In this document: piece after piece, positions 1,688 through 22,413 of the stretch
How positions within the stretch are numbered: position 1 is the first letter of the stretch
Layout: each line of letters opens with the position of its first letter
From: Thermofilum adornatum
GTDB taxonomy: Archaea > Thermoproteota > Thermoprotei > Thermofilales > Thermofilaceae
Assembly: GCF_000446015.1 (NCBI RefSeq)
Contig: NC_022093.1
Location: 210,001 to 242,000, forward strand
DNA: 32,000 nt
Reading direction: 5' to 3'
Notes under the pieces: generated by a model
Told to the model about the DNA's origin: nothing
Databases searched by the model: none
The model's input: only the letters and a program-made list of their open reading frames with translations
Program-made: the position numbers and the translations under genes

Positions 1688-2218
1688 GTGAGCGGTGAGG
1701 AAAAGGAGACTATTCCGGAGGAGTGGCTTGATAAGTTTATTAGCGAGATGATCGAGGGCGATGAGGCTTTAAAGACAATGTCTGAGCGTTTCAAGATTAC
1801 AAGGAACCTAGGGGAGGCGCTTGATTTTGCTGTTTCTCTGCTTGACAAGTATACTGCTGTTTCGATTAGTGGTTTTCCCCGGGAGGTTATCGTTGTTAGG
1901 CTTTGGGTTGTCGAGGCTAGGCGGACTAGCGGGGAGGAGGTTGTGAGGAGCAACCGTGATATTGGGTACTATGTTGTTTACCGGTACGGTATGCCTTGGG
2001 ACCCGTACGAGAGCTTTTTTGTTGCTTCTAGGGAGGAGCTGGTTGAGCGGTTGAAGGGGCTTCTTGAGAAGCTCTTCAAAGAGGATCTTGAGAAGGGCGA
2101 GGATGTGAGCATTGACGGCAGGAATTATACTTCTGTGGAGTTTCGCGGTGATGGCTATGTGGTTTTGATGGCTTTGGCTCGTCCTCATGCGAAGACTTGG
2201 TTTATGTATATTTGGTGA
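1688..2218 (+). CDS. hypothetical protein (176 aa)
   Basis: Intact ORF with a GTG start and an E/V/G/R-rich product. It is the first gene of the G+T-rich block. I recognise no family. Confidence 0.55.
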   Translation: MSGEEKETIPEEWLDKFISEMIEGDEALKTMSERFKITRNLGEALDFAVSLLDKYTAVSISGFPREVIVVRLWVVEARRTSGEEVVRSNRDIGYYVVYRYGMPWDPYESFFVASREELVERLKGLLEKLFKEDLEKGEDVSIDGRNYTSVEFRGDGYVVLMALARPHAKTWFMYIW

Positions 2219-2288
2219 GGTTTTTGGCTGTTTGATGGTTTTTGGGCTTTGTTTTTTGGGTTTTGTGGGCTTGTTTGTGGCGCGTTAG

Positions 2289-2295
2289 TTTTAAA
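2289..2295 (+). promoter_or_regulatory. TATA-like box (TTTTAAA) about 25-30 nt upstream of the ATG codons at 2314 and 2320
   Basis: The spacing fits a leaderless archaeal promoter for the deaminase gene. Confidence 0.4.
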
Positions 2296-2319
2296 GTTTT
2301 GTTTTGTGTGTGGATGTGT

Positions 2320-3666
2320 ATGGGCCTGCTTGTTGTCCGTGATGCTGAGGCTGTTTTGACGATGGATAGTGCTGGGACTGTTTTGAGGAGGCAGTCGATA
2401 CTGATACAGGATAATAGGATTGTGGCTGTGGGTGATTATGGGTCTCTTGTGTCCGGGTTTGGTAGCCCGGACGAGGTTGTTGATGGTCGTGGTAAGCTGG
2501 TTTTGCCTGGTTTCTATGATATGCATACGCATGTTGCGATGGCTGGGTTTAGGGGGCTTGCTAGCGATGTGGGGGACGTGATTTATCGTGTTTTTTGGCC
2601 TCTTGAGCGTAGCCTGGACGGGGACACGGTTTACAGGTTTGCTCTTTTGGGTGGCCTCGAGGCAGTTAAGAGTGGTGTTGTGCTTGTTGCTGACCACTAT
2701 TTCTTTATGGACCATGTTGCCAGGGCCCTGAGCGAGGTTGGGGTTAGGGGGCTGCTTGGGCACACGTATATGGATCGTGACGGCCCGTTTACTGGGGAGA
2801 GGGAGCTTAGGGCTGGATTGGAGTTTGTTGATAGGTGGTCTGGGCACGAGCTTGTTGTTCCAGTTTTGGCTCCACATGCGCCCGACACTGTTACGCGGGA
2901 GAATTTGAGGTATCTGGGCGAGCTGGCCCGTGAGAGGAATCTTTTCCTGCACATGCACCTGGCGCAGACTCTTAGGGAGTTTAGGGTTGTGAGGGAGGAG
3001 ACCGGGTATACGCCTGTGAGGTATGTTGAGAGGCTTGGGCTTCTCGGCAGGAGGACTATTGTTGCGCATGCCAACTATGTTGACGAGAACGAGAAGGCTT
3101 TGCTGGCTCATAGTGGTAGCCTGGTTGTCCAGTGCCCTTCGACGTACATGTTGTCTGGGACGCCTTTCCATGCTTATGACTATTGGCAGCTTGGGGGTAA
3201 CGTTGCTGTTGGGACGGATGCACCGTGCTACAACGATAACTCGGACTTTTTCGAGGAGATGAGGCTACTCGTTTATGGCCAGCGGGTGAAGTTTGAGAGG
3301 AGCAGTGTGTGGAGGGCCTACGACTTGCTCGAGATGGTTACTAGGCAGAGTGCGAGGTTTGTTGGGCTGGATGGGGGCTACATTGGGAGGGGGGCGCTGG
3401 CCGACCTGGTGCTTGTCGACTTGTCGAGTGTGAGGCTTAGACCTTTCCTGAACCCGTATGCGAACCTGGTGTATGCGGCTAGTAGTGGAGACGTTGATAC
3501 GGTAATTGTTAATGGTAGGGTTGTGGTGAGGGGGAAGAGGCACCTCTTCCTGGACGAGGAGCGAGTTGTTAACCAGGCGGAGGCGGCTTCTAGGATTCTC
3601 TTGCGTAGGGCCCTCGACGAGGACCCGGAGCTGGAGAGGATAATTGGCGTGGATAAAGTAATATAG
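2320..3666 (+). CDS. mtaD: amidohydrolase of the 5'-methylthioadenosine/S-adenosylhomocysteine (5'-deoxyadenosine) deaminase family (MtaD/DadD-like)
   Basis: N-terminus MGLLVVRDAEAVLTMD...IQDNRIVAVG. Metal ligands are seen at DMHTHVAM (HxH), LHMHLAQT, VAHANYV and GTDAPCYNDNSDFFEEMR, which resembles the MtaD motif GTDGAASNN..FEEMR. The ORF-track start at 2242 adds a W/F/C/V-rich extension that I reject. The likely start is ATG 2320, or 2314. Confidence 0.75.
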   Translation: MGLLVVRDAEAVLTMDSAGTVLRRQSILIQDNRIVAVGDYGSLVSGFGSPDEVVDGRGKLVLPGFYDMHTHVAMAGFRGLASDVGDVIYRVFWPLERSLDGDTVYRFALLGGLEAVKSGVVLVADHYFFMDHVARALSEVGVRGLLGHTYMDRDGPFTGERELRAGLEFVDRWSGHELVVPVLAPHAPDTVTRENLRYLGELARERNLFLHMHLAQTLREFRVVREETGYTPVRYVERLGLLGRRTIVAHANYVDENEKALLAHSGSLVVQCPSTYMLSGTPFHAYDYWQLGGNVAVGTDAPCYNDNSDFFEEMRLLVYGQRVKFERSSVWRAYDLLEMVTRQSARFVGLDGGYIGRGALADLVLVDLSSVRLRPFLNPYANLVYAASSGDVDTVIVNGRVVVRGKRHLFLDEERVVNQAEAASRILLRRALDEDPELERIIGVDKVI

Positions 3667-3687
3667 GGGGTTGCCGAGATTTTCTTG

Positions 3688-4407
3688 ATGCCGAAGCCTC
3701 TACATATTTTAGCAAAGCCGGAGGACATTGCTCCGAGGGTCATAGCTTCTGGTGACCCTGCTAGGGTTAAACAGCTTGCTGGGTATCTCGAGGGTGCCAG
3801 GCTCGTAAACGAGAACAGGGGGTTCCTCGTATACACTGGGAAGTATAAGGGTGTAGACGTCACTGTGGCTACGCATATGATTGGTGCGCCTTCTGCAGCG
3901 ATTGTATTCGAGGAGCTCATAATGCTCGGCGCCAAGCTCATTGTGAGGTTTGGGACCTGTGGGGGTTTCCTGCCAGAGATGAGGGTTGGTGACTTTGTCA
4001 TTGCTACTGGGGCTTCCTATAGCGGGGGCGGCACGATGAACACTTATAGCCCAGGTGAGTGCATGGCGGCTGTCCCGGACTACGAGGTTCTAAAGGCGCT
4101 GGTCGACAGTGCGAGCAGGCTGGGCTTGACGTTCCACTTGGGCCCCGTGATCAGCAGTGATAATTTCTATTCTGGGCTCGAGTACTTGAATAGGTGGATT
4201 GCGAGGGGCATGATTGCTGTAGACATGGAGGCCGCAACGTTGTTCCTCGTGGGGAGGCACAGGCGGATAAAGACTGGTGCAAGCTTCGTGGTGAGCGATG
4301 TTATTGGCCACGCATACGAGAAGATGGCGACCGCCGAGGAGCTCAGGGAGGCTGTAGACAAGGCTTCACGGGCAGTGCTTGATGCCGTTGTAAGCGTGAA
4401 GGTTTAA
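3688..4407 (+). CDS. nucleoside phosphorylase, PNP/UDP family 1 (DeoD / hexameric MTA-phosphorylase-like), copy 1
   Basis: GDPARV, LVNENRGF..YTG.YKG..V.V.TH.IG, RFGTCGG, VDMEAATLF and VVSDVIG, the last aligning by eye to DeoD TVSDHI. ATG at 3688, with a TTG at 3685. Confidence 0.8.
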   Translation: MPKPLHILAKPEDIAPRVIASGDPARVKQLAGYLEGARLVNENRGFLVYTGKYKGVDVTVATHMIGAPSAAIVFEELIMLGAKLIVRFGTCGGFLPEMRVGDFVIATGASYSGGGTMNTYSPGECMAAVPDYEVLKALVDSASRLGLTFHLGPVISSDNFYSGLEYLNRWIARGMIAVDMEAATLFLVGRHRRIKTGASFVVSDVIGHAYEKMATAEELREAVDKASRAVLDAVVSVKV

Positions 4408-5189
4408 TGTCAAATGTCTCGCCTACCAATAAAATATCCTTTTTTCTGGCCCGGTTTTTCTCCCAGCTTGGGGGAAAGCTACCTCTAGAAAGCGTCGTGA
4501 TTCCCTTTGGAAGGTACAGGTTTATTGTTCCTAGGAGGTGGCTGGAGGCCAGCCTGCTTAATATCGAGCACATCTATTTGCTGGGGGACTATGAGCGGGT
4601 TCCCTGCATGACGTGTGTGGAGCCAGGCGGGGCTGTGCTTGATTTGGGGGCGTTTGTGGGCTTATTCAGTGTGAGGGTGGCTTGTGAAAACAGGGATGTT
4701 AGGGTGTATGGTGTGGAGGCTAATCCTTTTGCCTGCCGGTATCTAGAGGCTAACTATAGGCTTAACGGGGTGAGAGGGGGTGGGGTTCTCTGTGGGGCGG
4801 TTGGTGTCAGGAGTGGCGTCGCGAGGCTGTTCGTGGCTGATAATGGTGTGAATTCTTCGCTTGTGCCTGGATACGTGGATGATTATTCTGTGAAGATTGG
4901 CGAGGTAGGGGTTAGGGTCTATTCTTTGCGGGAGGTTTTTGAGAAGTTTCAGCTTGATAGGGTGGCACTTGTGAAGATGGACATAGAGGGGGCAGAGGAG
5001 GGTGTTCTTTATTCTTCTAGGGAGCTTGTTTCCCCAGACAGGGTGGAGAGGTGGATTATAGAGGTTCATCCTCCCTACTCTTCTCCTAGCAGGATCGTGG
5101 GATTGCTAGAGAAAGGGTACCGTGTCGCCACGTTTTATGACTATGATGCTCCGGGCCAAGTGTTTGTGTATGGGTGGACGCGGAGGTAA
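4407..5189 (+). CDS. FkbM-family SAM-dependent methyltransferase
   Basis: VLDLGAFVGLFSVRVA, VYGVEANPFACRYLEANYRLNG and VALVKMDIEGAEEGVL match the FkbM-family pattern. The start overlaps the upstream stop as TAATG. Confidence 0.75.
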   Translation: MSNVSPTNKISFFLARFFSQLGGKLPLESVVIPFGRYRFIVPRRWLEASLLNIEHIYLLGDYERVPCMTCVEPGGAVLDLGAFVGLFSVRVACENRDVRVYGVEANPFACRYLEANYRLNGVRGGGVLCGAVGVRSGVARLFVADNGVNSSLVPGYVDDYSVKIGEVGVRVYSLREVFEKFQLDRVALVKMDIEGAEEGVLYSSRELVSPDRVERWIIEVHPPYSSPSRIVGLLEKGYRVATFYDYDAPGQVFVYGWTRR

Positions 5190-5220
5190 AACCTATATGT
5201 GTGTTGTGGGGTTATAGGGT

Positions 5221-5928
5221 ATGCCTTTCCATATACGTGCAGAAAGGGTTTCCGATAGGGTGATCGTTGTCGGGGACCCGGGGAGGGCAAGGCTTATTTC
5301 CAGCATTCTAGAGGACGCTAGGCTCGTAAACGAGAACCGTGGGTTACTCACATACAACGGTTTCTGGAGGGGAAGAGAGGTTACTGTGGCTACCCATGGT
5401 ATGGGCGGTGCCGGGGCAACAATTGTCTTTGAGGAGCTTATCCAGCTGGGCGGCCGTTTCCTGGTTCGCTATGGGACGACTGGCGGCATAAGGGAAAACG
5501 TCGAGCCGGGAGACTTCGTAGTGCCGGTTTCCGCTTTTTATCATCCCGGGGGGCTATTCAAGCAGTATTTTGGGGATCTCTGTGTCTCGCCTGCGCCTGA
5601 CCTCGAGTTGACGTGGAGGCTGAGCGAGTCTCTTAGGGGTAGGGGTCTCCGTGTGTGGGCGGCGCCCGTTGTGAGTAGTGATGCTTTCTATGCCGAGACT
5701 CCCGAGGTTGTAAAAAGGTGGAGCGAGTTTGGGGCTGTGAGCGTGGAGATGGAGTGCGCTTCTCTTTTCGCTGTTTCGCGCCTGAGGGGTGTTAGGAGCT
5801 CATCGGTTCTCTTGGTTAACGGGAACATATTGTACCCAGGAAAGAGGATGATCTCTGAGGGGGAACTAGAGGATAGGCTTCTAGCCGGGGCTAGGATCAT
5901 TTTGGACGTGCTTGCCGAGCTGAAATGA
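5221..5928 (+). CDS. nucleoside phosphorylase, PNP/UDP family 1, copy 2 (paralog of 3688-4407)
   Basis: Shares ARLVNENRG, VTVATHGMG, IVFEELIQLG, YGTTGG, GDFVV, VSSDAFY and VEMECASLF with copy 1. It has LLVNGN where copy 1 has VVSDVI. Confidence 0.8.
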   Translation: MPFHIRAERVSDRVIVVGDPGRARLISSILEDARLVNENRGLLTYNGFWRGREVTVATHGMGGAGATIVFEELIQLGGRFLVRYGTTGGIRENVEPGDFVVPVSAFYHPGGLFKQYFGDLCVSPAPDLELTWRLSESLRGRGLRVWAAPVVSSDAFYAETPEVVKRWSEFGAVSVEMECASLFAVSRLRGVRSSSVLLVNGNILYPGKRMISEGELEDRLLAGARIILDVLAELK

Positions 5929-5938
5929 GGTCATAGAG

Positions 5939-6367
5939 ATGTCTCTAACTTATAGACGCCTTACTGAGTTTAATGTTGCTGGGAGAGAGCTCCGCGAGAA
6001 GCGGAGGCTACTGGTTTATGGTAGCTGTATATTCCACGAGTACCCGGACATATTGTCAAGGTTTAGTGAGGGACGTGTGGCTCTGGGCGTGTGTCTCGAG
6101 GCGGAGCATCTCAATGTTGTGGCTTTGAAGCTTGCATCTATTTTTGCGAGGGTCGACCTGGAGGAGGTAGTTGTTTTGACTGTTGACGGTTCTCCGCACT
6201 GTATCCAGCTTCACCATGCTGTCGAGGAGGCTAGGAAGGTTACCGGGAGACAGATCAACGTCAGGCATTTCGTGATCGAGGGGGGAGAAGCTCTAGAGGT
6301 CAGCCCCGAAGCCGTGAAAGTAGCTAGGTACTTGTCAAAGATTCAAAGACTACTGAATAAGACTTAA
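5939..6367 (+). CDS. hypothetical protein (142 aa)
   Basis: Intact ORF with the same composition as the surrounding block. It contains VDGSPHCIQLHH. I cannot confidently recognise a family. Confidence 0.5.
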   Translation: MSLTYRRLTEFNVAGRELREKRRLLVYGSCIFHEYPDILSRFSEGRVALGVCLEAEHLNVVALKLASIFARVDLEEVVVLTVDGSPHCIQLHHAVEEARKVTGRQINVRHFVIEGGEALEVSPEAVKVARYLSKIQRLLNKT

Positions 6368-6393: not shown

Positions 6394-6915
6394 GTGAGTA
6401 AGGAGAGCAAGAGCAGTTTAGTTATAGCTGTTTCCGCGGTCTTCGCGGCTTTAACAACAGTCCTGACATATTTGCCTGGACTCGCCTTGCCCTCGCCAAC
6501 GGGAGGATACACCAATGTAGGTGACACCATTATCTTTATTGCAGGCCTGCTTTTCGGCTCCAAAGTTGGCCTTATAGTTGGCCTAGTGGGTCCAGTGATT
6601 GCCGACTTTTTGGTGGGTTATCCTAGGTGGTATGTGACACTTGTCGCCCACGGCCTGGAGGGGTTTATCGTGGGGATGGGTGCTAGGAAAAGCTTCAAGG
6701 TGCAACTGATGATGATGGTGATTGGAGGCCTAGTGATGAGTTTTACGTATTTCGTTGTAAATGTGTATGTTAAAGGGCTTGCCCCTGCTGTTGCCTCGCT
6801 TATCAGGGACGTGTTTGGACAGACCCTTGTATCAATAATTCTTGCCTCGCTGTTGCTAAAGCCTCTTGAGAAATTAGCTGTGATCAAGAGAGTTCAGGAA
6901 GTCATCCTGGGATAA
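6394..6915 (+). CDS. ECF-transporter S-component-like integral membrane protein (substrate unknown)
   Basis: 173 aa with about 5-6 hydrophobic segments and G-rich helices (GDTIIFIAGLLFGSKVGLIVGLVGPVIADFL), typical of small ECF substrate-capture proteins. GTG start. It lies about 0.8 kb from an EcfT/EcfAA' module. Confidence 0.55.
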   Translation: MSKESKSSLVIAVSAVFAALTTVLTYLPGLALPSPTGGYTNVGDTIIFIAGLLFGSKVGLIVGLVGPVIADFLVGYPRWYVTLVAHGLEGFIVGMGARKSFKVQLMMMVIGGLVMSFTYFVVNVYVKGLAPAVASLIRDVFGQTLVSIILASLLLKPLEKLAVIKRVQEVILG

Positions 6916-11813: not shown

Positions 11814-12884
11814 ATGGGTGAAAGGGGTCCTGGAACGTTGGATGCGGGTTCCCCTAGGGATGTGGCTGTTCAACTTTTGAAGTTCCTGGGTCTAACTGGT
11901 CTTGAGGCTGAATTATACCTCTTGTTGCTTGAGAAGGGTCCAATGAGTGCTCCTGAAATATCTGACCACTTGGTTAAGCATAGGCCCCAGATTCACGTTG
12001 CCTTGACTAGGCTGTCTTCTAAGGGGTATATCGAAGAGCTGGGCGGCAGGCCTAAGAAGTATAGGGCTGTTGATCCACAATTGTTGCTGAATATTTTTCT
12101 GAAAGATTTTGATGTCTTGGCGAAGAAGGCTCTAGCCTATATGCAGTCAATTTCGAGACCATCCCCCGAGGAAAAGTACGGCGTGTGGATTATACGGGAG
12201 CCGGAGGTAGCTAAGAACAGGATGGCAGAACTTTTAGACACTGCTACTACGGATGCCTTGATAATGGGCGATATAAAGTTCATACATCTCCTCAGCGAGA
12301 AGATCGAGAATGCTATAAACCGTGGGGTCCGCGTGTATGTTCTTTCATATTCTCTTGGCGAGAGGGGAGCCAAGTTTATCTTGGAAGACATGCCGTTTCT
12401 AAAGAAGCTCAGAGTTGCTGTTTCCGGAGACCTGGTAATTGTTGTCGACTCTGAACGGGGAGGCGTTCTTAAGGCTCGCCCGACTCTTCCAACTAGGCAT
12501 GGGTACCTTATCGAGGAAAGAACGCTTACAGACTACCTTTCGCATGACTTTATGAATAGATGGGTAAACGCTAAGGTGATAGTTGATGAGGACTACGAGT
12601 TGCCTTGGAGGTTTACTTTTCACAGGATGGCCCTCTATGAGACAAAGAAGCTTCTCCTCGAGAACAGGAAATTGAGGCTGAAGGTTAAGGGCTACGAGAT
12701 AGATACTGGCGCAAGAGTCGAAATAGATGGAAACATAATAGATGCGGTGCTTGACGTTCCGGCAGGATTTGCCCATTTCAAGGTTGAGACTGATTCTGGA
12801 ATAGTTAGAGTTGGTGGACTGGACGCTATTGTAGAGGAGGTTGCCGGAGAATTTTTCGAAATATATGAGGGATCTAAGCAGTAA
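11814..12884 (+). CDS. TrmB-family transcriptional regulator (wHTH plus C-terminal effector domain)
   Basis: LGLTGLEAELYLLLLEKGPMSAPEISDHLVKHRPQIHVALTRLSSKGYIEE is the classic TrmB N-terminal winged helix. At 356 aa the size matches TrmB/TrmBL proteins. Confidence 0.75.
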   Translation: MGERGPGTLDAGSPRDVAVQLLKFLGLTGLEAELYLLLLEKGPMSAPEISDHLVKHRPQIHVALTRLSSKGYIEELGGRPKKYRAVDPQLLLNIFLKDFDVLAKKALAYMQSISRPSPEEKYGVWIIREPEVAKNRMAELLDTATTDALIMGDIKFIHLLSEKIENAINRGVRVYVLSYSLGERGAKFILEDMPFLKKLRVAVSGDLVIVVDSERGGVLKARPTLPTRHGYLIEERTLTDYLSHDFMNRWVNAKVIVDEDYELPWRFTFHRMALYETKKLLLENRKLRLKVKGYEIDTGARVEIDGNIIDAVLDVPAGFAHFKVETDSGIVRVGGLDAIVEEVAGEFFEIYEGSKQ

Positions 12885-14529
12885 ATTTGTACTTTATTAT
12901 TTCCCAAGCTAGCCGCGGAGTCAAGTAGGAGAGTACAATTTTCTTCATTGGGTAGAGCTCCTCTTCTTTTAGGGTTTCCTTGGAGTCAAAGACCCCCGCT
13001 TTTTTCATTTGTCGCGCCAGACTTATGCTCTGAATAACTGCGGCATAGTATTCGTCGTCGATGAGTCCAACCTTGTGCTTGCTCTTGGCTAGGCTTTCAA
13101 CAGCGTTGTATGTTGCTTCTGCTATTTCTCGTCTTGTCAACCACTGGGTTTCATAGTTTAACATTTCGTGCCAGTTTTTAGCAAGAAGCAGTTTCCGGTG
13201 GTCTGTCAGGGTATAGGCGTATAGCTTGTATCCATATTTTGCCGATTTGTGGAAAGCTATGCTTCCAGGATCAACGAAGGGTGCAAGTGGGGCGACGAAG
13301 GCATCAACGGTGTTTGGGGCTTCTTGCCAGAGCTCCTCGAAAAAGCTTCCAATTGGTCTTACGTTTTCAACTGTCTGGCCGGGTAGGCCTATCATAAAGT
13401 AAAGGTCTATTCTTTCGAAGCCTAGTTGCTTGGCGTTTCTTAGGAAGGTTTTGAGTGTTTGGTTTGTGTAGGGTCTACCGTAGTGTCTTCTTATTTCTTC
13501 GTCCTGAGATTCAGGCGAGATCTGAAGGTAAACTCTTTCGCTGGCTTTCCTCATAAGTTCCAAGACCTCTCTCGGTGGGGGTACGAAAAATTCGAAGAAT
13601 ACTTCCAGGTCTTGTTTTTCGCTACTTAGGAGCTTCGTTAGCTTTTCTATGTAGGTTTTTCCTAGAACCTGGAGGTCGTTGACAAAAAATATTGGCGCCT
13701 TTAACCTCTCGGTTATTTCCTTGTATTCCTCAAAAAGGGTTTCAGGCTTCTTTATTCCTAGATTTTTCCTTTGAAAGATTACGCTATAGGTAAAGTGGCT
13801 TCCCCCGCATGCTAGACAGTTGTAGGTACACCCCTTATAGGTTATTACAGCCGTGACGGGGTGCTTTAGAAATGTGCTCCATGGAAGCGAGAGGGTAACC
13901 CCGCTTCTGACCATAACTTTTACGACTATATCGTACTTGGGGCGAAGCTCGTCGAGTTCTGCTGGGACGTATTTTAAGCCTGTGAATTTTATTTTCCCGT
14001 CTTTTGTCCTGTAGGCTATATTAGGTATCTCCTTCAATTCCTCTAGGAGACCTTTCTCGAGCTTTTGAAGAAGCTGGTAGAATATGGGCTCGGTTGTGTC
14101 GCCAAGGACAATGGCGTCTACAAAGGGATAGTTTTCTAGTATCTCGCGCCAATAGTAGGTGGATGAGAGGCCGCCAAGAACAACTGGATTCCCCGTGATT
14201 TCTTTAACTAGCTTTGCAACTTCAAGGGCACCGTGGGAATGAACCAGCCAGTGGAGATCTATACCGTATACTTTGGCGTCTATTTGACGGATCAGCCTTG
14301 CTACATCTACATTGGGATCGTTCACCATTTTAGCGGCGATGTTGTATATGCCGGTCTTTATTCCTCTCTCTTCTAGGTATGAAGCCAGCGAGAAGAAACC
14401 CGCAGGATACATGTCGAAGATAGGTTTAGATGGTATAACGTCGCTTATGGGACCATAATTTACGTAGGTATGTTTCCTGAAGTCGTATACGCTTGGTGCA
14501 TGTATGAGAGCCAAGTCTAAGTGCTTCAC
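12874..14529 (-). CDS. B12-binding-domain radical SAM protein (class B-like), function unknown
   Basis: The N-terminal Rossmann-like part (VYGIDLHWLVHSHGALEVAKLVKE...NPVVLGGLSSTYYW) is followed by CTYNCLACGG (CX3CX2C). GTG start. TAATATTAA lies on the minus strand about 26 nt upstream. Confidence 0.8.
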   Translation of the reverse strand: MKHLDLALIHAPSVYDFRKHTYVNYGPISDVIPSKPIFDMYPAGFFSLASYLEERGIKTGIYNIAAKMVNDPNVDVARLIRQIDAKVYGIDLHWLVHSHGALEVAKLVKEITGNPVVLGGLSSTYYWREILENYPFVDAIVLGDTTEPIFYQLLQKLEKGLLEELKEIPNIAYRTKDGKIKFTGLKYVPAELDELRPKYDIVVKVMVRSGVTLSLPWSTFLKHPVTAVITYKGCTYNCLACGGSHFTYSVIFQRKNLGIKKPETLFEEYKEITERLKAPIFFVNDLQVLGKTYIEKLTKLLSSEKQDLEVFFEFFVPPPREVLELMRKASERVYLQISPESQDEEIRRHYGRPYTNQTLKTFLRNAKQLGFERIDLYFMIGLPGQTVENVRPIGSFFEELWQEAPNTVDAFVAPLAPFVDPGSIAFHKSAKYGYKLYAYTLTDHRKLLLAKNWHEMLNYETQWLTRREIAEATYNAVESLAKSKHKVGLIDDEYYAAVIQSISLARQMKKAGVFDSKETLKEEELYPMKKIVLSYLTPRLAWEIIKYKFTA

Positions 14530-14607
14530 AGAAAAATGGAGCCCTTAGGTTAATATTAGTTTTTTGTAAAATTTTTCCTTAATAGAAAACTAGATTTCGT
14601 TCAGGCT

Positions 14608-15678
14608 TTAGGGAATGACTTCGACCGTATTATTGTAAGGAGGGTAAAGAATGTCTTTTAGAGTAATTCTCCCCTCTTTTAAGTAGTTTTTTATGGTTGG
14701 AAGTGCCTCTAGAAGGGAATCTATGAGGCCTATAGTTGCTTTGCACACTTCTTTGAAGCCGTTTTCGCCCCAAAGCCTCTCCATGTATGCGTACAAGCAC
14801 CTTCCACCACAATACCTGTAGTAGCTACAGGAGATACAGGGTTCACCTATTTTTGGAGCAGACTCGGGGCTAAGTTTGCCTTGAGAAATATTTCCCAGCT
14901 CTGCCCATTTCTCCTCTACAGCTATGGGGCAGGCAAGAATCCTCCCATCAGTTAAAATCGAGAAAGAATTCACTCCAGCCCCACAGGGCGGAGCGGCATA
15001 ATTATCAATGAATGTTTTTGTTATGATAGCCTTAAATGGGGCAATTCCAAGTACTGTTCCCCTCGACATCTCTTCAACCCAAACATCAACCAGCTTCCTT
15101 ACCCCGGGAAGGTACGACGCATCCCTCCATTGCTGGAAGTTTTTCCATCTGTCGCTCCATACAACGTCTAGCTGCCAGTGTACATGGGTGAATAGTTTCA
15201 ATGATAAAAGATGCATGACGTCTAGATAAATATCTGTATCCTCTGTCACAGTCATCCTTGCTATTAAATCACCTGTGAAACCTATTGTCCTTAGCCACTC
15301 TGCGGTAGATATTACTTTTTCGTAGACCCCTTTTCCGCGATACTTGTCCGTAACTTCTGGCCTGCCGTCTATAGACAAGAGTATTGCATCGAACTTGAGC
15401 CAGTAATCTTTTGGAAGACTCCTGGGAATCGTCCCGTTTGTCTGAATGACAAAATGTTTCACTTTGACATTGTCAATCGCCCACATTATAAATTCAGGGT
15501 TTAGAAGCGGCTCGCCACCATAAAATGCAATGACCGCCTCGGGGTCTTTCTCAATAAACCTTTTAAGATACTCAGGGTTGTATTGTATTTTCCAAGGCAC
15601 TTTTCTGGGGTCGAAGCTTCCCCCACAATAAGCGCATTTCAGGTTGCATTGACCAGTCGTGTGCACTATGTAGAGCAT
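14608..15678 (-). CDS. radical SAM protein with a C-terminal SPASM domain (peptide- or cofactor-maturase-like), function unknown
   Basis: CNLKCAYC (CX3CX2C) at the N-terminus and FYGGEPLL. The full SPASM cysteine pattern is present: CGAGVNSFSILTDGRILAC (CX12GX4C), CISCSYYRYCGGRC (CX2CX5CX3C) and a later Cys in FKEVCK. Confidence 0.85.
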   Translation of the reverse strand: MLYIVHTTGQCNLKCAYCGGSFDPRKVPWKIQYNPEYLKRFIEKDPEAVIAFYGGEPLLNPEFIMWAIDNVKVKHFVIQTNGTIPRSLPKDYWLKFDAILLSIDGRPEVTDKYRGKGVYEKVISTAEWLRTIGFTGDLIARMTVTEDTDIYLDVMHLLSLKLFTHVHWQLDVVWSDRWKNFQQWRDASYLPGVRKLVDVWVEEMSRGTVLGIAPFKAIITKTFIDNYAAPPCGAGVNSFSILTDGRILACPIAVEEKWAELGNISQGKLSPESAPKIGEPCISCSYYRYCGGRCLYAYMERLWGENGFKEVCKATIGLIDSLLEALPTIKNYLKEGRITLKDILYPPYNNTVEVIP

Positions 15679-16119: not shown

Positions 16120-16971
16120 ATGAGGATCGGGTTTATTGGCACAGGTCAAATGGGTTTCCCAATGGCCCGCCACCTCGCCGGAACAGGCAACGAAATAACT
16201 GTTTGGAACAGGACTATTGAGAAAGCTAAACCACTAGCCAACTATGGAGCTAGGATCGCGGGAAGCATAAAGGAGCTTGCAGAAAACTCGGACGTGATTT
16301 TTATCATGGTTGCCGACGACGAGGCTTCTAGAAGCGTCCTTAAAGAGGTTTTCAGCCATGGGAAGCCCCAAATCATTGTGAACCACAGCACAGTTTCGCC
16401 TATACATACACGGGAAGCCTACGAAAATGCTATTGCAGTCGGAACCGAGTACCTAGCCGTACCCGTAATGGGTAATCCCACAAATGTTGAAAAGGGAGAC
16501 TGCCTCTGTATTGTGGGTGGAAGCGAAAAAGCGTTTCAGCAGGTCAGCGGCTTGACTGGAAGGTATTGCAAGGAACATGTATATGTAGGCAGTCCTGAAA
16601 AGGCCTCGGCAATAAAGCTGGCGCTAAACAGTATGTATTTTATGGCTCTAGAGTCTCTCGCCGAGGCTTTGCTCTTGGTAAAATCCTGGGACGTCGGCGA
16701 GAACGAGTTTCTGGAAATTGCGAGTAAACTATGGCTTAAAGTAATCGTGGATAGATATGCACACAGGCTATTAGACGAATCGACCCCCACTAGCTTTCAA
16801 ATGAAGCTCGCTACGAAGGATCTTTTTTATGCTGTCCTATCGGGGTATCACAGGGGCCAACCACTGCCAGTAACAACGAGGCTTGCAGAGATATTCTTGG
16901 AGGCCTCCAAATTGGGGAGGCTAGGCGACAAGGACTATACGAGAATCTACAAGTTCTTAGGCTCCAAGTAG
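16120..16971 (+). CDS. NAD(P)-dependent beta-hydroxyacid dehydrogenase (3-hydroxyisobutyrate / 6-phosphogluconate dehydrogenase-like)
   Basis: MRIGFIGTGQMGFPMARHL dinucleotide-binding motif, then VWNRT...A and an AIKLALN helix typical of the HIBADH family. Confidence 0.8.
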   Translation: MRIGFIGTGQMGFPMARHLAGTGNEITVWNRTIEKAKPLANYGARIAGSIKELAENSDVIFIMVADDEASRSVLKEVFSHGKPQIIVNHSTVSPIHTREAYENAIAVGTEYLAVPVMGNPTNVEKGDCLCIVGGSEKAFQQVSGLTGRYCKEHVYVGSPEKASAIKLALNSMYFMALESLAEALLLVKSWDVGENEFLEIASKLWLKVIVDRYAHRLLDESTPTSFQMKLATKDLFYAVLSGYHRGQPLPVTTRLAEIFLEASKLGRLGDKDYTRIYKFLGSK

Positions 16972-16972
16972 G

Positions 16973-18040
16973 CTAGATTTCTGCAATTTCGACCCACCTG
17001 TGTATTTTAAGCCCAATGTAGTCCTCAATCTTTATTGGGGAGAGAACAGCTTGTCTTATAATAAAGGAAGCAAGCTGCGCTGGAATCCTCGCTTGAACCT
17101 CTCTGGGGACATTTCCTACGGAGACTTCGAGGTCAGTGTCGCGTACAGCTTCCGGCGGAAAGCCGTCAAAGCCCTGTAGTTCGAGTTTCTGGTTGAAGTA
17201 CCACCGTGCAATTATCCTCCTAGTGGTATTCTTGGCTACTACTACGGCTCGATAGCCGCCGTTTACCTTGAAGAGGTTCTCGTCTATGAAGACGACTAGC
17301 CTGCGGACTTCTCTTTTTTTCTCAAAGGGAAGCCTAGCCTTAGCTACCCAGCTTTCCAGATCGTCTAGAAAATCATGGGGGGACCTGTATTTATTTGCGA
17401 GGATTTCTTTGGGCATTCTTGCCACGGGTCTCTCAATCATTATTTCGAGTAATCTTCTCATGTTTTTCCCAGGAGCAATGACATATTGCCATGGTATGTC
17501 TAGCCAGTCTTCATACCGATCTATCAGGTTCCACTTTTTCAATAGTTTTACGCGACTGTTGAGTTGTGGATCGAGGACAGCTTCCATTTTTACATCCAGT
17601 TCTGTTTGTGTTAGTGTCCCAGCGTAGGCAATAGCAAATGCTTTTTTTGATACATGTTGTCCCGGTATAACTGCTAGAAAAGTGTCCTGGGCATATGGCT
17701 TAGCTAGCTCTGGCTTTGTTGAGTTCATTACCGCTTCGAGTAAGGAGTCTAGGTTTCCTGGTATAAAGTTGGGATGTAGCCTTATTATTCTTTCATCTAT
17801 GTAGGGAAGTTCTAGCCTAGCTGAATAGTCTTCGGCCACAATGCCCCCAACTATAAATACGTCTTGTTTTTTCGCCTCTAGGAGTTTCTCGGGGCACTGT
17901 TTGTTTAAACCGTTCTTGTCGTAGCATTTCACTGGTGTGAGGTTTTCGTCTAGAAGTATCTTGTGGAATACAGACTCGTCGCTTATTGCTATAGGGGCAG
18001 GTGATGCCCTCTTTGGGTCAGGTATGTATATTACGAGCAT
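16973..18040 (-). CDS. hypothetical protein (355 aa), fourth gene of the small-GTPase operon
   Basis: Intact ORF 9 nt downstream of the preceding gene. I recognise no family. Confidence 0.6.
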   Translation of the reverse strand: MLVIYIPDPKRASPAPIAISDESVFHKILLDENLTPVKCYDKNGLNKQCPEKLLEAKKQDVFIVGGIVAEDYSARLELPYIDERIIRLHPNFIPGNLDSLLEAVMNSTKPELAKPYAQDTFLAVIPGQHVSKKAFAIAYAGTLTQTELDVKMEAVLDPQLNSRVKLLKKWNLIDRYEDWLDIPWQYVIAPGKNMRRLLEIMIERPVARMPKEILANKYRSPHDFLDDLESWVAKARLPFEKKREVRRLVVFIDENLFKVNGGYRAVVVAKNTTRRIIARWYFNQKLELQGFDGFPPEAVRDTDLEVSVGNVPREVQARIPAQLASFIIRQAVLSPIKIEDYIGLKIHRWVEIAEI

Positions 18041-18049
18041 TAAGTCTTT

Positions 18050-18883
18050 TTACCTTTTCTGTGCATATATAAGTGTAAAGGGTCCCTGGGCATGGTATCG
18101 TATTTGTGTGAAACGTGCGTCTTGCAGGTCTCTGAGTATTTTTTCTAGGGGTGGATACTCTGGTATCTTCCATATCTTTAGAAGGGTTCTCAGGCCTTCT
18201 CTGGCGTTGTCTGGGAACATCGCTATAAGGGTTCCACGTCTTTTGAGCAGCTTTACGGCTAAATCCAGGACAGTTCTCCAACCGAGGCTCATGGCTTCCA
18301 GGGATGATGAAACAAATATATCTACATTTGTTGCCAATGATGAAAATTGCTCAGATGTTTCCAAGGTAAAGGCTTTAAGATTTAAATTGTATTTCCGGTT
18401 GTATTCTTCTATGGCTTCTTTGAATATTGTGTTTTGGAGTATCCATCTTTCAGCTAATACATGGTTATTTGTATTGAAACGTGAATTCATTTTTGCAAGC
18501 ATTATTGGAGCAACTGGGTTAACCTCGACTGCGACGGCGCTTTGCGGGACGGAGAGGATGTTTAGAGCCCATTCTTGGAGATTTTCCACAATAGCCATTC
18601 TATTGAAAAGTTCGGCAAAAAGGAGGTATGGTCTCCAGTCTCCTTCAAGGTAAACTTCTGAATAGGCCGTTATTCCATATTGGAAGATTTCTTGGAACTC
18701 TTTATGCTCTATTCCTAGCTGTGCATTGTTTAGACGTGTAGTTGCCGATGTTACAAGAGATGGAAGTAGCTTTTCGATGCTAGCTAGGTCTAGCAACTGG
18801 GGTGCAGATGTTTTTCTGAAGTTTGCCAAAGCCTCAGGAAGCAGTGTTACAGCGATGTCGTGGAAAACCTCTGGATATGACAT
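18050..18883 (-). CDS. hypothetical protein (277 aa), third gene of the small-GTPase operon
   Basis: The start overlaps the upstream stop (TAATG). The C-terminal half (VDIFVSSSLEAMSLGWRTVLDLAVKLLKRRGTLIAMFPD) faintly recalls a class I methyltransferase fold, but I see no Gly-rich SAM loop. Confidence 0.6.
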   Translation of the reverse strand: MSYPEVFHDIAVTLLPEALANFRKTSAPQLLDLASIEKLLPSLVTSATTRLNNAQLGIEHKEFQEIFQYGITAYSEVYLEGDWRPYLLFAELFNRMAIVENLQEWALNILSVPQSAVAVEVNPVAPIMLAKMNSRFNTNNHVLAERWILQNTIFKEAIEEYNRKYNLNLKAFTLETSEQFSSLATNVDIFVSSSLEAMSLGWRTVLDLAVKLLKRRGTLIAMFPDNAREGLRTLLKIWKIPEYPPLEKILRDLQDARFTQIRYHAQGPFTLIYAQKR

Positions 18884-19689
18884 TACTCTACCACCAAGTC
18901 TATTATTTTCCTTCTTTGAAGTGAGAGAAGGGCTTCAATATATGAATAAATAATCTGGGGGTTTTCCAGACCGAGAAGTTGAGAAACTTTTGTGTTTGAT
19001 ACTTCCATGACCCTGTTGATAAATCCTCCATTGTGTTTATCGAAGAGGATCATAGGCCTGTATTTACGTGCCAGCATGGCTTCTCTTTCGTGTACTTTTA
19101 CCGTTATGTTTGAAGCGTTAGTAATGAGCCAGAAGACCTGCTTAATGTACTCGAAGGGTTTCTCTTCTATGAGTACGTCTAGGAGCCTTATCGCGTTTAC
19201 GTAGTCTGCCTGGTTGAATGAGAAGGATGTATCGAGCGCCTCGGCTAAAAGCTCTAGCCATGATCTTGCTTGCTGGTAGCTAATGTCTCTTGCAAAGTCG
19301 ACTTCGAGAGTAGTTTCTCCTTTGTAAACCTTGATGCTACTTGATGGTTGTCTCAGGTATCCACTTATGCGGTAATTTATTCTTTTGCTTTCAACTGTAA
19401 AACCGGCAATGTTTCTAAGGCCTCTTAGCCACTCGTCGGGGACTTTAACTTGGTAAAAACCCTTTGCAACTGGCTGTAAAAGGGAGAACACCCTTGTTCC
19501 TCTTTCCTCTCCATTTCTGTCGACATACACAATCAGCACATGATTATCATGTGGAAAGGCTACCCCGGCTAGCCCTAAAGGATTGCTCTGCGCATCAATC
19601 AAAATCTTATCATTTACTTCCACGGTTTCGACGGTATTACAAGTAGGACATCTTATTTTAAATACCCGAACCATCCCCTGTTTGCTCAT
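18883..19689 (-). CDS. hypothetical protein (268 aa), second gene of the small-GTPase operon
   Basis: The start overlaps the GTPase stop (ATGA). The N-terminus has CPTC followed by PHDNH (a possible C2H2-type metal site), then a beta-rich region and a helical region. Confidence 0.6.
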   Translation of the reverse strand: MSKQGMVRVFKIRCPTCNTVETVEVNDKILIDAQSNPLGLAGVAFPHDNHVLIVYVDRNGEERGTRVFSLLQPVAKGFYQVKVPDEWLRGLRNIAGFTVESKRINYRISGYLRQPSSSIKVYKGETTLEVDFARDISYQQARSWLELLAEALDTSFSFNQADYVNAIRLLDVLIEEKPFEYIKQVFWLITNASNITVKVHEREAMLARKYRPMILFDKHNGGFINRVMEVSNTKVSQLLGLENPQIIYSYIEALLSLQRRKIIDLVVE

Positions 19690-20210
19690 AAACTCCCTCT
19701 TTCAATAATGTTTTTTAACAAAAAAATAAATGCCTCATTAACATTTATTCCTTTCGCTACTGAAACCTCAAAATATTCTAGCATGCCTTTTGAGCGGGCA
19801 TATTCTCTAGCCAAGGAATACGGCACGATCTTAAGCTCCTCTAAATCCGCCTTGTTTCCAACGAGTATGCTTGGAACGTTTCCGACAACTCCTTCACTTA
19901 TTTTTCTCCACTCTTCAATCTCAAGAAAAGTTTCTTCGCGTGTAAGATCAAACACATAGATAATGCCTTTTGCTCCCTTCAGAAACATGGGGGCCAAGAA
20001 ACGGAACCTGTGCTCTCCGCCTAGATCCCATATAGCTACCGAGATTTCTTTACCATCTAGAACAAGCTTCTTGAAGAAATGCTGTATCCCTACTGTTAAT
20101 TTTTCTTGTGGGTTAAATTGTTGTCCAGTAAAGTATCTTGCAAGGCTTGTTTTTCCCACGCCTCCGGGACCGCATAGGGAGATCTTAATTGGAATTGTCA
20201 ATGTAATCAC
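19686..20210 (-). CDS. Ras-superfamily small GTPase (Rab/Ras-like)
   Basis: G1 is GPGGVGKT. G2 is the Thr in LTVGIQ. G3 is WDLGGEHRF. G4 is GNKADL. G5 is VSVAKGINVNEAF. The protein is 174 aa with a GTG start. Confidence 0.85.
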   Translation of the reverse strand: MITLTIPIKISLCGPGGVGKTSLARYFTGQQFNPQEKLTVGIQHFFKKLVLDGKEISVAIWDLGGEHRFRFLAPMFLKGAKGIIYVFDLTREETFLEIEEWRKISEGVVGNVPSILVGNKADLEELKIVPYSLAREYARSKGMLEYFEVSVAKGINVNEAFIFLLKNIIERGSL

Positions 20211-20220
20211 TCTCTAGATA

Positions 20221-20269
20221 TCCTTTGGAATAATGTTAGTTTTTGAATAAAAATTTATTCCTTGGAATA
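20221..20269. repeat. direct repeats TCCTTTGGAATA (20221-20232) and TCCTTGGAATA (20259-20269) bracketing an A/T-rich TATA-like stretch upstream of the GTPase gene
   Basis: Read directly in the 70-nt gap between the aminotransferase stop and the GTPase start. Confidence 0.4.
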
Positions 20270-20280
20270 TGGTATTTATT

Positions 20281-21474
20281 CTAGCTCTCCACCCATTCCT
20301 TTATTCTCTTTATGCCTTCTCTTATCGCGTTTTCGGGCACGGCGAAAGAGAATCTAAGATGATTTATGCCTCCATCTTTGGGGAAGGCTGTGCCGGGTAA
20401 AGTTACCACCCCCTTCTCGTATAGAAGCCTGTCGACCAGTTCTCTTTCGTTTTTCAGCCCCTTCTCTTTTATGACTTGGGTGAAGTCTGGGAAAATATAG
20501 AATGCGCCCTCTGGCTTTACTGTCCTGACACCCTTAATCGATAATAGTTCCTGGTATATTAAGTCTCTCCTTCTCTTGTAGCCCTCTAGGATCTCTTTGA
20601 ACCAGTCCAGCCCATAGTCTAGGGCGCGTGCCGCGGCAATTTGCTCAAAGGTTACTGGGCACGAGTAAATGTTATTTGCGACGACGGAAAGTTTTGAGAC
20701 TAGGTCTTTGTTGGTGATTACGTAGCCTAGCCGCCAGCCTGTCATTGCAAAGGTCTTGGAGAAGCCGTTTACATAATAAACTGTTTCTCTCCAGTTAGCT
20801 GTTTGGAGAGTCGAGAAGTGTTTCTTTTCATATACAAAGTGATCATATATCTCGTCTGAGAGAATAACTATTCCTTTCTTTGAAGCGAAGTCTACTATTT
20901 CCTCTATGTCTCTTCTATCTATAGTTGTGCCTACGGGGTTCTCGGGGTAGTTTAGGACAATCATTTTAGTCTTGTCTGTAACCAGCTTCTCTATTTCCGG
21001 GAAGGTTATCTTGTAATTATTGTCTCTGTGGAGCCTTAGAAAAACAGGTTTGGCCCCTATATATCTGGCGACAGACTCATAGAGTGGATATGAGGGGTCG
21101 GGTATTATGACCTCGTCTCCGGGCTCTAGAAGTGTTATCATCCCTATAAAGATTGCAGACTTAGCTCCAACAGTTACTGCCACTTCTTCAGGCTTTACGT
21201 CGGTTCCATATTCCTGCGAGACGAAGTCGGCAATCTTTTCTCTTAGCTCTGGCATTCCAAGGCTTGGTCCATAACCGTTGAATCCCTCATCCATCGCTTT
21301 CTTGGCTTCTGCCAACACGTGGGGAGGGGGCTGAAAGTCCGGCTGTCCTATCCCGAAGGAAATTACGTCTACGCCTTTCTTCTTTAACTCGAGGCTTTTT
21401 GCAAGGTAAACAAAGGCTTCTTCTGCTCCAAACTGAGAAGAAGCCCTACTAACCCGAAATGCCTGTGGAGTCAC
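20281..21474 (-). CDS. pyridoxal-phosphate-dependent aminotransferase, class I/II (aspartate aminotransferase-like)
   Basis: NGFSKTFAMTGWRLGY (PLP-lysine motif SK....G.R.GY), NYPENPVG and GQPDF. GTG start. Confidence 0.85.
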   Translation of the reverse strand: MTPQAFRVSRASSQFGAEEAFVYLAKSLELKKKGVDVISFGIGQPDFQPPPHVLAEAKKAMDEGFNGYGPSLGMPELREKIADFVSQEYGTDVKPEEVAVTVGAKSAIFIGMITLLEPGDEVIIPDPSYPLYESVARYIGAKPVFLRLHRDNNYKITFPEIEKLVTDKTKMIVLNYPENPVGTTIDRRDIEEIVDFASKKGIVILSDEIYDHFVYEKKHFSTLQTANWRETVYYVNGFSKTFAMTGWRLGYVITNKDLVSKLSVVANNIYSCPVTFEQIAAARALDYGLDWFKEILEGYKRRRDLIYQELLSIKGVRTVKPEGAFYIFPDFTQVIKEKGLKNERELVDRLLYEKGVVTLPGTAFPKDGGINHLRFSFAVPENAIREGIKRIKEWVES

Positions 21475-21610: not shown

Positions 21611-22102
21611 GTGAAAATTATGGAGACCCTTGTCAAAAACGTACAAGAAATTTTAGCATCTATTGAGTCGGGCATCAAAGAGAAAAAGTTTCCAGAGCAA
21701 ATAAGAATATATATCGAGCAGTTGGGGAGAAATTTAAGGCAATTCCTAGAAACAATCGAGATCGCTACACAGCTAAATACAATACAGACCCCTATAAGCC
21801 CGAGCTCAAGAAGCGCTGTATTTAACTTGCGGAAAGCCTTCTATGCTATACTAACTAAAGAGATCAAGCAAAGCGGAGTAAATAAGGATAAGAGCTTGGA
21901 GGAGTGGAGGAGAGCTGCTTCGAAAATAATTGAGACATATGAGAAAAGTGGGTTGACAGAGACACCTTCAAAGATAGTTTTGAGCTACGAGATTAAAGAA
22001 GAAGGAGGAGTCAAATACATCTCATTCAAGAATGCAAAAATATTCTACTTTGAACTCGAAGGCATTCTACCAGTAGACCTGTCAACCGGAGAGAAAAGAT
22101 AA
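21611..22102 (+). CDS. hypothetical protein (163 aa; ATG at 21620 is an alternative start)
   Basis: Intact ORF with a K/E/I-rich helical-looking product. TTTATAAATA lies upstream. Confidence 0.5.
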   Translation: MKIMETLVKNVQEILASIESGIKEKKFPEQIRIYIEQLGRNLRQFLETIEIATQLNTIQTPISPSSRSAVFNLRKAFYAILTKEIKQSGVNKDKSLEEWRRAASKIIETYEKSGLTETPSKIVLSYEIKEEGGVKYISFKNAKIFYFELEGILPVDLSTGEKR

Positions 22103-22413
22103 GAGTTGAGAAGGGAGTCATCTATATCTGGGGACTCTGTATAGGGTCCAGTGTACCATCCCTTTGCTATTTTTATGAGTTCCTCCTGTGGGAGAATGTC
22201 TTCTGCCAGTTTCAGTACGTCTTCGAATGTTCCTTTTTTCCTTATTTCTCGGATTCTTTTTTTGAGATAAGGCTTCTCGTAGACAAGCATTCGGGCCATC
22301 TCTTCAAAGATTTTACGACCTTCACTGTTAAGTGAACCATTAGAAAAATAGTTTGAGTTTTGTTTTAGGAGCTTTTTCATGAGGTTCTCTACGTCACGAC
22401 CCACGTCGTCCAT
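22045..22413 (-). CDS. hypothetical protein (122 aa)
   Basis: Intact ORF with a K/E-rich product. Its 3' end overlaps the convergent 163-aa ORF by 58 nt. Confidence 0.5.
   Translation of the reverse strand: MDDVGRDVENLMKKLLKQNSNYFSNGSLNSEGRKIFEEMARMLVYEKPYLKKRIREIRKKGTFEDVLKLAEDILPQEELIKIAKGWYTGPYTESPDIDDSLLNSYLFSPVDRSTGRMPSSSK

Follow-up and report, generated by a model that had tools for sequence, protein, structure and literature searches.

A stretch of 32,000 nt from the genome of the hot-spring archaeon Thermofilum adornatum (contig NC_022093.1, positions 210,001 to 242,000; referred to as the window and numbered from its first nucleotide) carries four tightly linked genes on its minus strand, here designated G, B, C and D. 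They encode a Rab-like small GTPase (G) and three proteins which, as far as their sequences tell, belong to no recognised family. The order G-B-C-D was kept in every Thermofilaceae locus examined, about 20 loci in all, and the module is confined to this one archaeal family. The explanation to which we give somewhat more credence than doubt is that the four genes form a vertically inherited, Thermofilaceae-specific operon with its own promoter, encoding a soluble protein assembly that is controlled by a GTP switch. The elements of the locus are as follows; those of the four genes were taken from the list of open reading frames (ORFs) and from the sequence.

19686..20210, minus strand: G, Rab-like small GTPase, 174 aa, GTG start
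18883..19689, minus strand: B, orphan protein, 268 aa
18050..18883, minus strand: C, protein with a class I methyltransferase-like core, 277 aa
16973..18040, minus strand: D, orphan protein, 355 aa
20246..20256, minus strand: TATA-box-like A/T-rich element AAATTTTTATT, putative operon promoter, read directly from the sequence
20281-21474, minus strand: class I/II aminotransferase, directly upstream of G

The first-pass annotation of this DNA had described the genes as a tightly coupled unit, and the junctions are as it claimed: G and B overlap by 4 nt (ATGA), B and C overlap by 1 nt (TAATG), and a gap of 9 nt separates C from D. The same types of junction recur in related genomes. ATGA joins G and B in 8 of 10 lineages, B and C overlap by either 1 or 4 nt, and the gap between C and D measures 5–11 nt in 8 of 10 lineages, with a GGAGGT-like motif inside it in most. 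An alternative start for G, a TTG at 20201, would give a protein of 171 aa and agrees with the start of most orthologues. The C-terminal AQKR of C is invariant, and is encoded by codons of the form ...CAGAA(A/G)AGGTA(A/G) (18050-18062 in the window, and orthologues). These codons double as a GGAGGT/AAGGT Shine-Dalgarno-like motif placed 5–11 nt before D, so that conservation of the tail may partly reflect a translational signal.

Upstream of G, an A/T-rich spacer of 70 nt separates its start from the stop of the aminotransferase gene (20281), and the TATA-like box lies within this spacer. T/A-rich boxes similar to AAATTTTTATT are present about 35–55 nt upstream of the G start in at least 10 orthologous loci. 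A scan of the locus for sigma-70 promoters and terminators found nothing above shuffled sequences, using models that are bacterial while the host is archaeal.

All four genes are under purifying selection. Compared with a relative of 96–99% identity, the ratio of nonsynonymous to synonymous substitution rates (dN/dS) was 0.00 for G, 0.03 for B, 0.18 for C and 0.22 for D, and compared with a relative of 70–86% identity it was 0.03–0.05 for G, C and D. The same four genes were called by independent gene callers in JGI, NCBI and ENA records and, together with the low dN/dS values, this agreement shows that they are real genes and not chance ORFs. The window proteins contain no hydrophobic segment of transmembrane grade (19-residue Kyte-Doolittle maximum 0.94–1.24; orthologues reach up to 1.72).

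Outside the window, the order G-B-C-D was found in T. pendens Hrk5 (L001), in a metagenome-assembled genome (MAG) from ENA (L003), in a Thermofilaceae MAG (L004) in which the identity of C falls to 21–22%, and in 12 metagenome loci, all of them checked by hmmsearch of six-frame ORFs. It was also seen around the two most distant representatives of C that were looked up, P0016 (L020-L022) and P0015 (L023, whose contig truncates G). Identity to the window proteins ranges over 55–86% for G, 25–75% for B, 21–75% for C and 27–70% for D; the T. pendens Hrk5 counterparts are 49–73% identical, and exact copies of the window B are carried by 16 metagenome contigs. B, C and D were never found apart from each other in the loci examined, and never apart from G wherever the contig reached far enough. 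The gene order on which the first-pass annotation had staked its reading is, then, conserved in related genomes, and the source, a member of the Thermofilaceae, lies within the Thermoproteota as that annotation supposed. The downstream neighbour varies (an NAD-dehydrogenase gene, a 414-aa hydrophobic ORF or Maf; in the window, a convergent NAD-binding dehydrogenase-like gene ending at 16971), and the four genes remain contiguous.

An exhaustive search of 1.84e9 proteins with a hidden Markov model of C returned 7 representatives of the family and no ordinary methyltransferases, and every representative with a checked context sits in a G-B-C-D module. Word-indexed searching gave 4 clusters of B (among 5.8e9 proteins) and five clusters of D, all of them Thermofilum-like. 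The aminotransferase gene adjoins G upstream in every locus examined, even in those with a different downstream neighbour, with spacers of 40–170 nt. Frameshifts within C or D were noticed in L014 (5035-7051), L008 (~6650-6675) and L013 (~5820-6000) and look like assembly indels; a C-D fusion in L014 is only apparent, being caused by the frameshifts of that contig.

Judged by its sequence, G is a genuine Ras-superfamily GTPase of Rab-like (Rup-family) type and the orthologue of T. pendens Tpen_0080. It matches Pfam Ras (PF00071) over its full length with E = 1.8e-38 (132.1 bits, against a cut-off of 21.6), Roc with E = 2.2e-25, Arf with E = 1e-8, and TIGR00231 with E = 4.5e-22 (78.6 bits, against a cut-off of 42.5). 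All five G motifs are there, namely G1 as the Ras-like P-loop GPGGVGKT, Thr39 of G2 (switch I), G3 as WDLGGEHRF, G4 as NKAD and G5 as SVAK, and with the full-length match above the curated cut-off they identify a Ras-superfamily small GTPase. Among the 60 matches to PDB sequences listed, nearly all are Rab, Ypt or Sec4 proteins, the top one being Rab11B (E = 2.2e-30), and the best solved relatives among these matches are Rab11, Rab1 and Ypt1; the similarity of G is thus closest to the Rabs. Five segments (VGIQHF, AIWD, RFRFLA, FLKGA and YVFDLT) resemble RabF1-5 by eye.

Two Rab hallmarks are altered or absent. In the HMMER alignment to Rab11B, 'iwdlggehrfr' falls on 'iwdtagqeryr', and this places Glu66 of G at the position of the catalytic Gln; Glu66 is invariant in 13 orthologues of G, in place of the Gln of the Rab DTAGQE motif. 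The protein ends in ...NIIERGSL and its sole Cys is C13, leaving it without a prenylatable C-terminal Cys, a lack reported for all archaeal Rab-like GTPases (PMC4915359). The first-pass annotation was right that this GTPase is Rab/Ras-like and has Glu in place of the catalytic Gln, but its further deduction, that the change from Gln to Glu makes hydrolysis dependent on catalysis supplied by a partner, is weak. It is doubtful because the Q61E change in Ras is reported to increase intrinsic GTPase activity (PMC2987813, PMC10515638).

The GTPase has been listed before. Tpen_0080 (171 aa) was entered as 'Rup Unc' by Wuichet & Sogaard-Andersen 2014 (PMC4316618), with its neighbourhood given only as '<Rup' and no conserved neighbours reported, and the same survey records a separate MglA/MglB pair in T. 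pendens (Tpen_0253). Surkont & Pereira-Leal 2016 (PMC4915359) predicted a single 'Rab-like' protein for T. pendens and another for Thermofilum sp., and in their analysis these grouped with two Lokiarchaeum sequences; 'Rab-like' is the Rabifier class of the T. pendens orthologue, and its phylogenetic position was reported as unresolved. Their search for counterparts of the regulators of eukaryotic Rabs gave no homologue. Neither paper treats the partners or downstream genes of Tpen_0080, and a literature search found no paper on Tpen_0077-0080 or describing this operon. The new regulatory module suggested by the first-pass annotation is therefore not new in its GTPase, already catalogued as unclassified Rup in 2014 and as Rab-like in 2016, but its partners are in neither paper, and the conserved trio and its tight coupling appear to be undescribed.

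Like the Rup family (PMC4316618), G has eukaryote-like G1-G5 motifs and keeps the G3 Asp. It resembles Rup Group 1 in particular in lacking the catalytic Gln and in having three conserved partner genes beside its own. However, Tpen_0080 was placed in neither Group 1 nor Group 2, the Gln is replaced specifically by Glu, and B, C and D bear no relation to the partners found in Group 1 and carry none of their domains; those partners are a coiled-coil protein, one linked to OmpA, and a GGDEF/EAL protein or histidine kinase. By the definition of Group 1, its GGDEF/EAL or histidine kinase partner carries an N-terminal Gln (PMC4316618). The operon lies outside the scope of the study of archaeal Rab-like GTPases (PMC4915359), and B, C and D represent new families. 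The MglA-MglB pair is comparable as a prokaryotic small GTPase encoded beside a dedicated partner, but G is not an MglA; it is Rab-like and has the G3 Asp (Asp62, in WD62LGGE), a residue that MglA proteins lack, and no Robl_LC7 signature was matched in B, C or D. The small GTPases of Asgard archaea (Tran et al. 2024, PMC10933270) are likewise archaeal members of the Ras superfamily with eukaryote-like features. In Asgard MK-D1, GTPase genes generally lie outside operons with candidate regulators, making pairing hard (PMC10933270), whereas G sits in a fixed operon, with partners that do not resemble longin or roadblock proteins to any significant degree.

The first-pass annotation had found B and D unrecognisable, had noted a faint methyltransferase-like C-terminal half in C, and had seen no MglB/roadblock partner. 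Each of these impressions was borne out by the searches: B and D have no significant match in the families or structures searched, the methyltransferase likeness of C could be strengthened, and no roadblock signature was detected by sequence in any of the three.

B is an orphan with a probable zinc-ribbon-like domain of C2H2 type at its N-terminus, followed by a beta-rich subdomain (~79-132) and an alpha-helical C-terminal half (138-259). Across 12 sequences plus that of L020, an alignment reaching down to 24–25% identity, the residues C14, P15, C17, H47, H50, Y55, D57, G60, E62, R63, G64, R66 and F68 are invariant, as are R259 and R260; the T. pendens protein has exactly 2 Cys and 2 His in its 268 residues. 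In the best AlphaFold2 (AF2) model (predicted local distance difference test, pLDDT, 79; predicted template modelling score, pTM, 0.60) the CPxC motif lies between strands E8-13 and E20-25 and the HxxH motif between strands E40-46 and E50-57, an arrangement of paired hairpin knuckles that recalls zinc ribbons. B may accordingly be a zinc-binding protein, to judge from these residues. Pfam Zn_ribbon matches are weak (best E = 0.02). Searches with B in Pfam, NCBIfam, PADLOC and PHROGs and among PDB sequences gave no significant match, nor did Foldseek of the AF2 model against PDB and BFVD.

Several other identities were considered for B and set aside. Foldseek against PDB listed sigma-adaptin and zeta-COP (longin) with a probability of ~0.5, a template modelling (TM) score of 0.37 and E of 0.3–0.4; for a longin, roadblock or PCNA-like fold there were only matches with E >= 0.1 and TM <= 0.37, and the zinc-ribbon reading is preferred. 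Neither Foldseek against BFVD nor PHROGs gave any significant viral relative. A match to the Brix-domain structure 1w94 (E = 0.62) was taken as noise, and the Pfam WVELL match in 9 of 11 members (best E = 0.0012, below the cut-off) arises from a short W-[LM]-E-L-L helix and is without functional meaning. Internal duplication is not indicated, hhalign between the subdomains giving probabilities of <1%. The JGI name 'truncated hemoglobin YjbI' for cluster P0001, which is 99% identical to B, is unsupported by any search and is probably a propagated misannotation. In L004 (6198-6477; JALURH010000075.1), the zinc-ribbon part of B continues in frame right after the G stop without an ATG, GTG or TTG start; the start candidates are ATA or ATT, and the cause would be a non-canonical start or, at a coverage of ~2x, an error in sequencing.

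C is best described, from profile and motif comparisons, as a class I methyltransferase-derived fold with an extra helical N-terminus. The helical extension covers residues ~1-110 and a divergent core with the fold of class I S-adenosylmethionine (SAM)-dependent methyltransferases covers ~112-277. With a profile of 12 sequences, all nine PDB matches at E <= 10 were class I methyltransferases, and an 8-sequence profile also gave these almost exclusively. The best matches were to CmoM (4htf/8joz) at a marginal E = 0.0027-0.003; others were TTHA0223, TaqI, the RRP8-like 2zfu and Tam. All alignments fall on the 'VDxxxfxSL...LLKPrGxL' segment. What the C-terminal half of C matches in class I methyltransferases such as CmoM is the 'D-x-hydrophobic...LkPGG-x-L' segment, and the order of strands and helices predicted for C would fit a class I fold. 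The window protein has no Pfam or NCBIfam match; Pfam Methyltransf_23 was matched in 2 of 8 members with E = 0.063, below the gathering score. The name 'Class I SAM-dependent methyltransferase' given in UniRef to the T. pendens protein is an automated label. A comparison by hhalign of the C profile with the FkbM/TRM5-like methyltransferase of the window gave no match, and is uninformative because that target was a single sequence.

Unlike ordinary class I methyltransferases, most members of the C family lack the Gly-rich motif I and all of the family's likeness is preceded by the extra N-terminus of ~110 aa. The window protein has 'VEVNPVAPIML' in place of the E/DxGxGxG loop, and a degenerate motif, 'E(V/A)N.(V/A)AP' or similar, is found in 10 of the 11 lineages compared; motif I is degenerate in P0015 and P0016 as well. 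SAM binding has probably been lost in most lineages, going by this motif. The only invariant residues of C are A47, Y69, E91, A209, L213, G217 and P224.

D matches no family in Pfam, NCBIfam, PADLOC or PHROGs and no PDB sequence. Ten sequences defined its conserved motifs, ERPV (203-206), KN..R...(A)RWYF (270-282), D..PPEA (292-298) and K..RW.E.A (345-353), which lie mostly in the C-terminal third, a region with AF2 pLDDT <50. The AF2 model as a whole is poor (pLDDT 55), making its Foldseek output meaningless. The UniRef name 'NurA domain-containing', given to the T. pendens orthologue, was not upheld, since none of 7 members matched Pfam NurA at E <= 10 and L004 does not keep the D253/E254 pair.

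Taken together, a mechanism can be envisaged for the proposed GTP-controlled assembly. The switch would be G, with Glu66 perhaps serving as a built-in general base, in line with the raised intrinsic activity reported for Ras Q61E, and the start/stop overlaps would ensure that B, C and D are made in fixed proportion. The three most likely bind G or one another, and the stoichiometric complex and the roles as GTPase-activating protein (GAP) or guanine nucleotide exchange factor (GEF) suggested in the first-pass annotation are conceivable for them. B is the best candidate for a direct partner of the GTPase, as regulator or effector, because its gene overlaps the G stop codon and its sequence is better conserved than that of C or D; its zinc-ribbon-like domain is followed by the invariant E62-R63-G64-x-R66, which could provide an arginine finger. 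C, without the SAM-binding glycine loop in most lineages, would probably act as a scaffold or adaptor (a pseudoenzyme), and D as a further subunit or effector. We infer that the four genes are co-transcribed, that their products form a complex in which B touches the GTPase, and that C has lost methyltransferase activity.

Several observations weigh against this reading. Only one of the five AF2 models of B is confident, so that the geometry of the putative zinc site is a prediction. The most distant orthologue of C (P0018, from L004) has kept motif I in canonical form, 'VDLYGGPGVAS', with 'VFEDDE' after it, and C might be catalytically active in that lineage or, given an unusual pocket, in all of them. 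For B and D, homologues were sought by word-indexed search only, so that remoter ones may exist elsewhere. Synteny across the family extends to the upstream aminotransferase gene and two small hypothetical genes; with the whole neighbourhood syntenic, the conserved order is partly explained by shared ancestry.

A more specific version, which we put forward tentatively as possible rather than probable, holds that B, C and D are a previously unknown set of GAP, GEF or effector proteins for a non-Asgard archaeal Rab-like GTPase, B having a new zinc-ribbon-based GTPase-binding fold with an arginine finger and C being a methyltransferase-derived pseudoenzyme adaptor. If true, it would give the archaeal Rab-like GTPases their first operon-defined set of partners.

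It is unlikely that the module is instead an enzyme centred on C, in which C would be an active, atypical methyltransferase, B its zinc-binding activator and D the substrate-binding protein, with the GTPase gating the reaction. Such an enzyme would account for the class I core of C, for the canonical motif I with acidic motif II ('VFEDDE') in the L004 lineage, for the acidic residue kept at the end of the putative beta2 strand in most members, and for the small predicted zinc module of B beside a methyltransferase-like gene. Trm112, which works with Mtq2, Trm9 or Trm11, offers an analogy for the role of B. However, the glycine-rich SAM loop is replaced in 10 of 11 lineages, no Pfam methyltransferase model reaches E = 0.01 for C, no conserved catalytic motif follows its beta4, and B has no detectable similarity to Trm112 or to any other family.

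That the four genes are adjacent merely through inherited synteny and genome compaction, with unrelated functions, is distinctly unlikely. Short overlaps are common in compact archaeal genomes, and the flanks (the aminotransferase, two small hypothetical ORFs, GlmS and an NTP-transferase) are indeed syntenic across the family; but contiguity, order and junction type persist down to 21–27% identity of the partners while the downstream neighbour changes, and the partners were not seen separately, or without G on contigs of sufficient length.

A GTP-controlled switch acting on transcription or nucleic acids, in which the C-terminal end of B (~221-267) would be a winged-helix-like DNA-binding module, is very unlikely. 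The AF2 model does end in a suggestive series of elements (H221-229, H235-239, H244-259, E263-267) containing the invariant R259 and R260, and partners with winged helix-turn-helix domains were proposed for Group 3 MglA by Wuichet 2014 (PMC4316618). Against this, no helix-turn-helix or winged-helix Pfam family matched B even at E <= 10, Foldseek gave no winged-helix protein, and the segment is not basic (isoelectric point 6.4).

A reading of the locus as a system of anti-virus defence or conflict, or as a mobile island, with the small GTPase as sensor, can be dismissed as highly improbable: orphan, fast-evolving partners beside an NTPase are typical of conflict systems, but PADLOC gave two below-noise matches only (E = 0.014-0.026) and PHROGs none, the chromosomal position is fixed in all lineages with low dN/dS, and no tRNA, repeat, integrase or mobile-element feature was found near the operon, the PADLOC result and the fixed synteny being decisive.

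Interest in the Ras- and Rab-like GTPases of archaea comes from the possibility that they are forerunners of the switches of membrane traffic in eukaryotes. Their partners have largely escaped identification, because the Asgard GTPase genes are usually not placed beside candidate regulators (PMC10933270). The operon described here is a rare case of an archaeal Rab-like GTPase with obvious candidate partners. It supplies a direct list of candidate interactors. The genus can be cultivated (Thermofilum pendens Hrk5), and a thermostable system of this kind lends itself to biochemical and structural work. Three protein families without recognised relatives are added as well, and one of these appears to be a pseudoenzyme derived from a methyltransferase. 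What limits the significance is the taxonomic range of one family and the earlier cataloguing of the GTPase.

Other features of the window were noted. Beyond the aminotransferase lie two convergent hypothetical genes, at 21611-22102 (plus strand, 163 aa) and 22045-22413 (minus strand, 122 aa), with a 3′ overlap of 58 nt and no Pfam match. T. pendens, L003, L004 and L020 have counterparts of both in the corresponding position, on the upstream side of the aminotransferase gene, and the two make up a second conserved orphan pair of the syntenic block. On the other side, 12874-15678 (minus strand) holds two adjoining radical-SAM genes, one encoding a B12-binding protein of 551 aa and the other a protein of 356 aa with a Cys-rich C-terminus, and both are kept in the T. 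pendens and L003 neighbourhoods. The region 2001-6000 has a G+C content of 0.51-0.54, compared with ~0.43, and a strong positive GC skew of 0.26-0.40. It is not rRNA, Rfam being without a match, and codes on the plus strand for an amidohydrolase, two PNP/UDP-family phosphorylases and the FkbM/TRM5-like methyltransferase; horizontal acquisition and codon bias are both possible causes of the shift in G+C.

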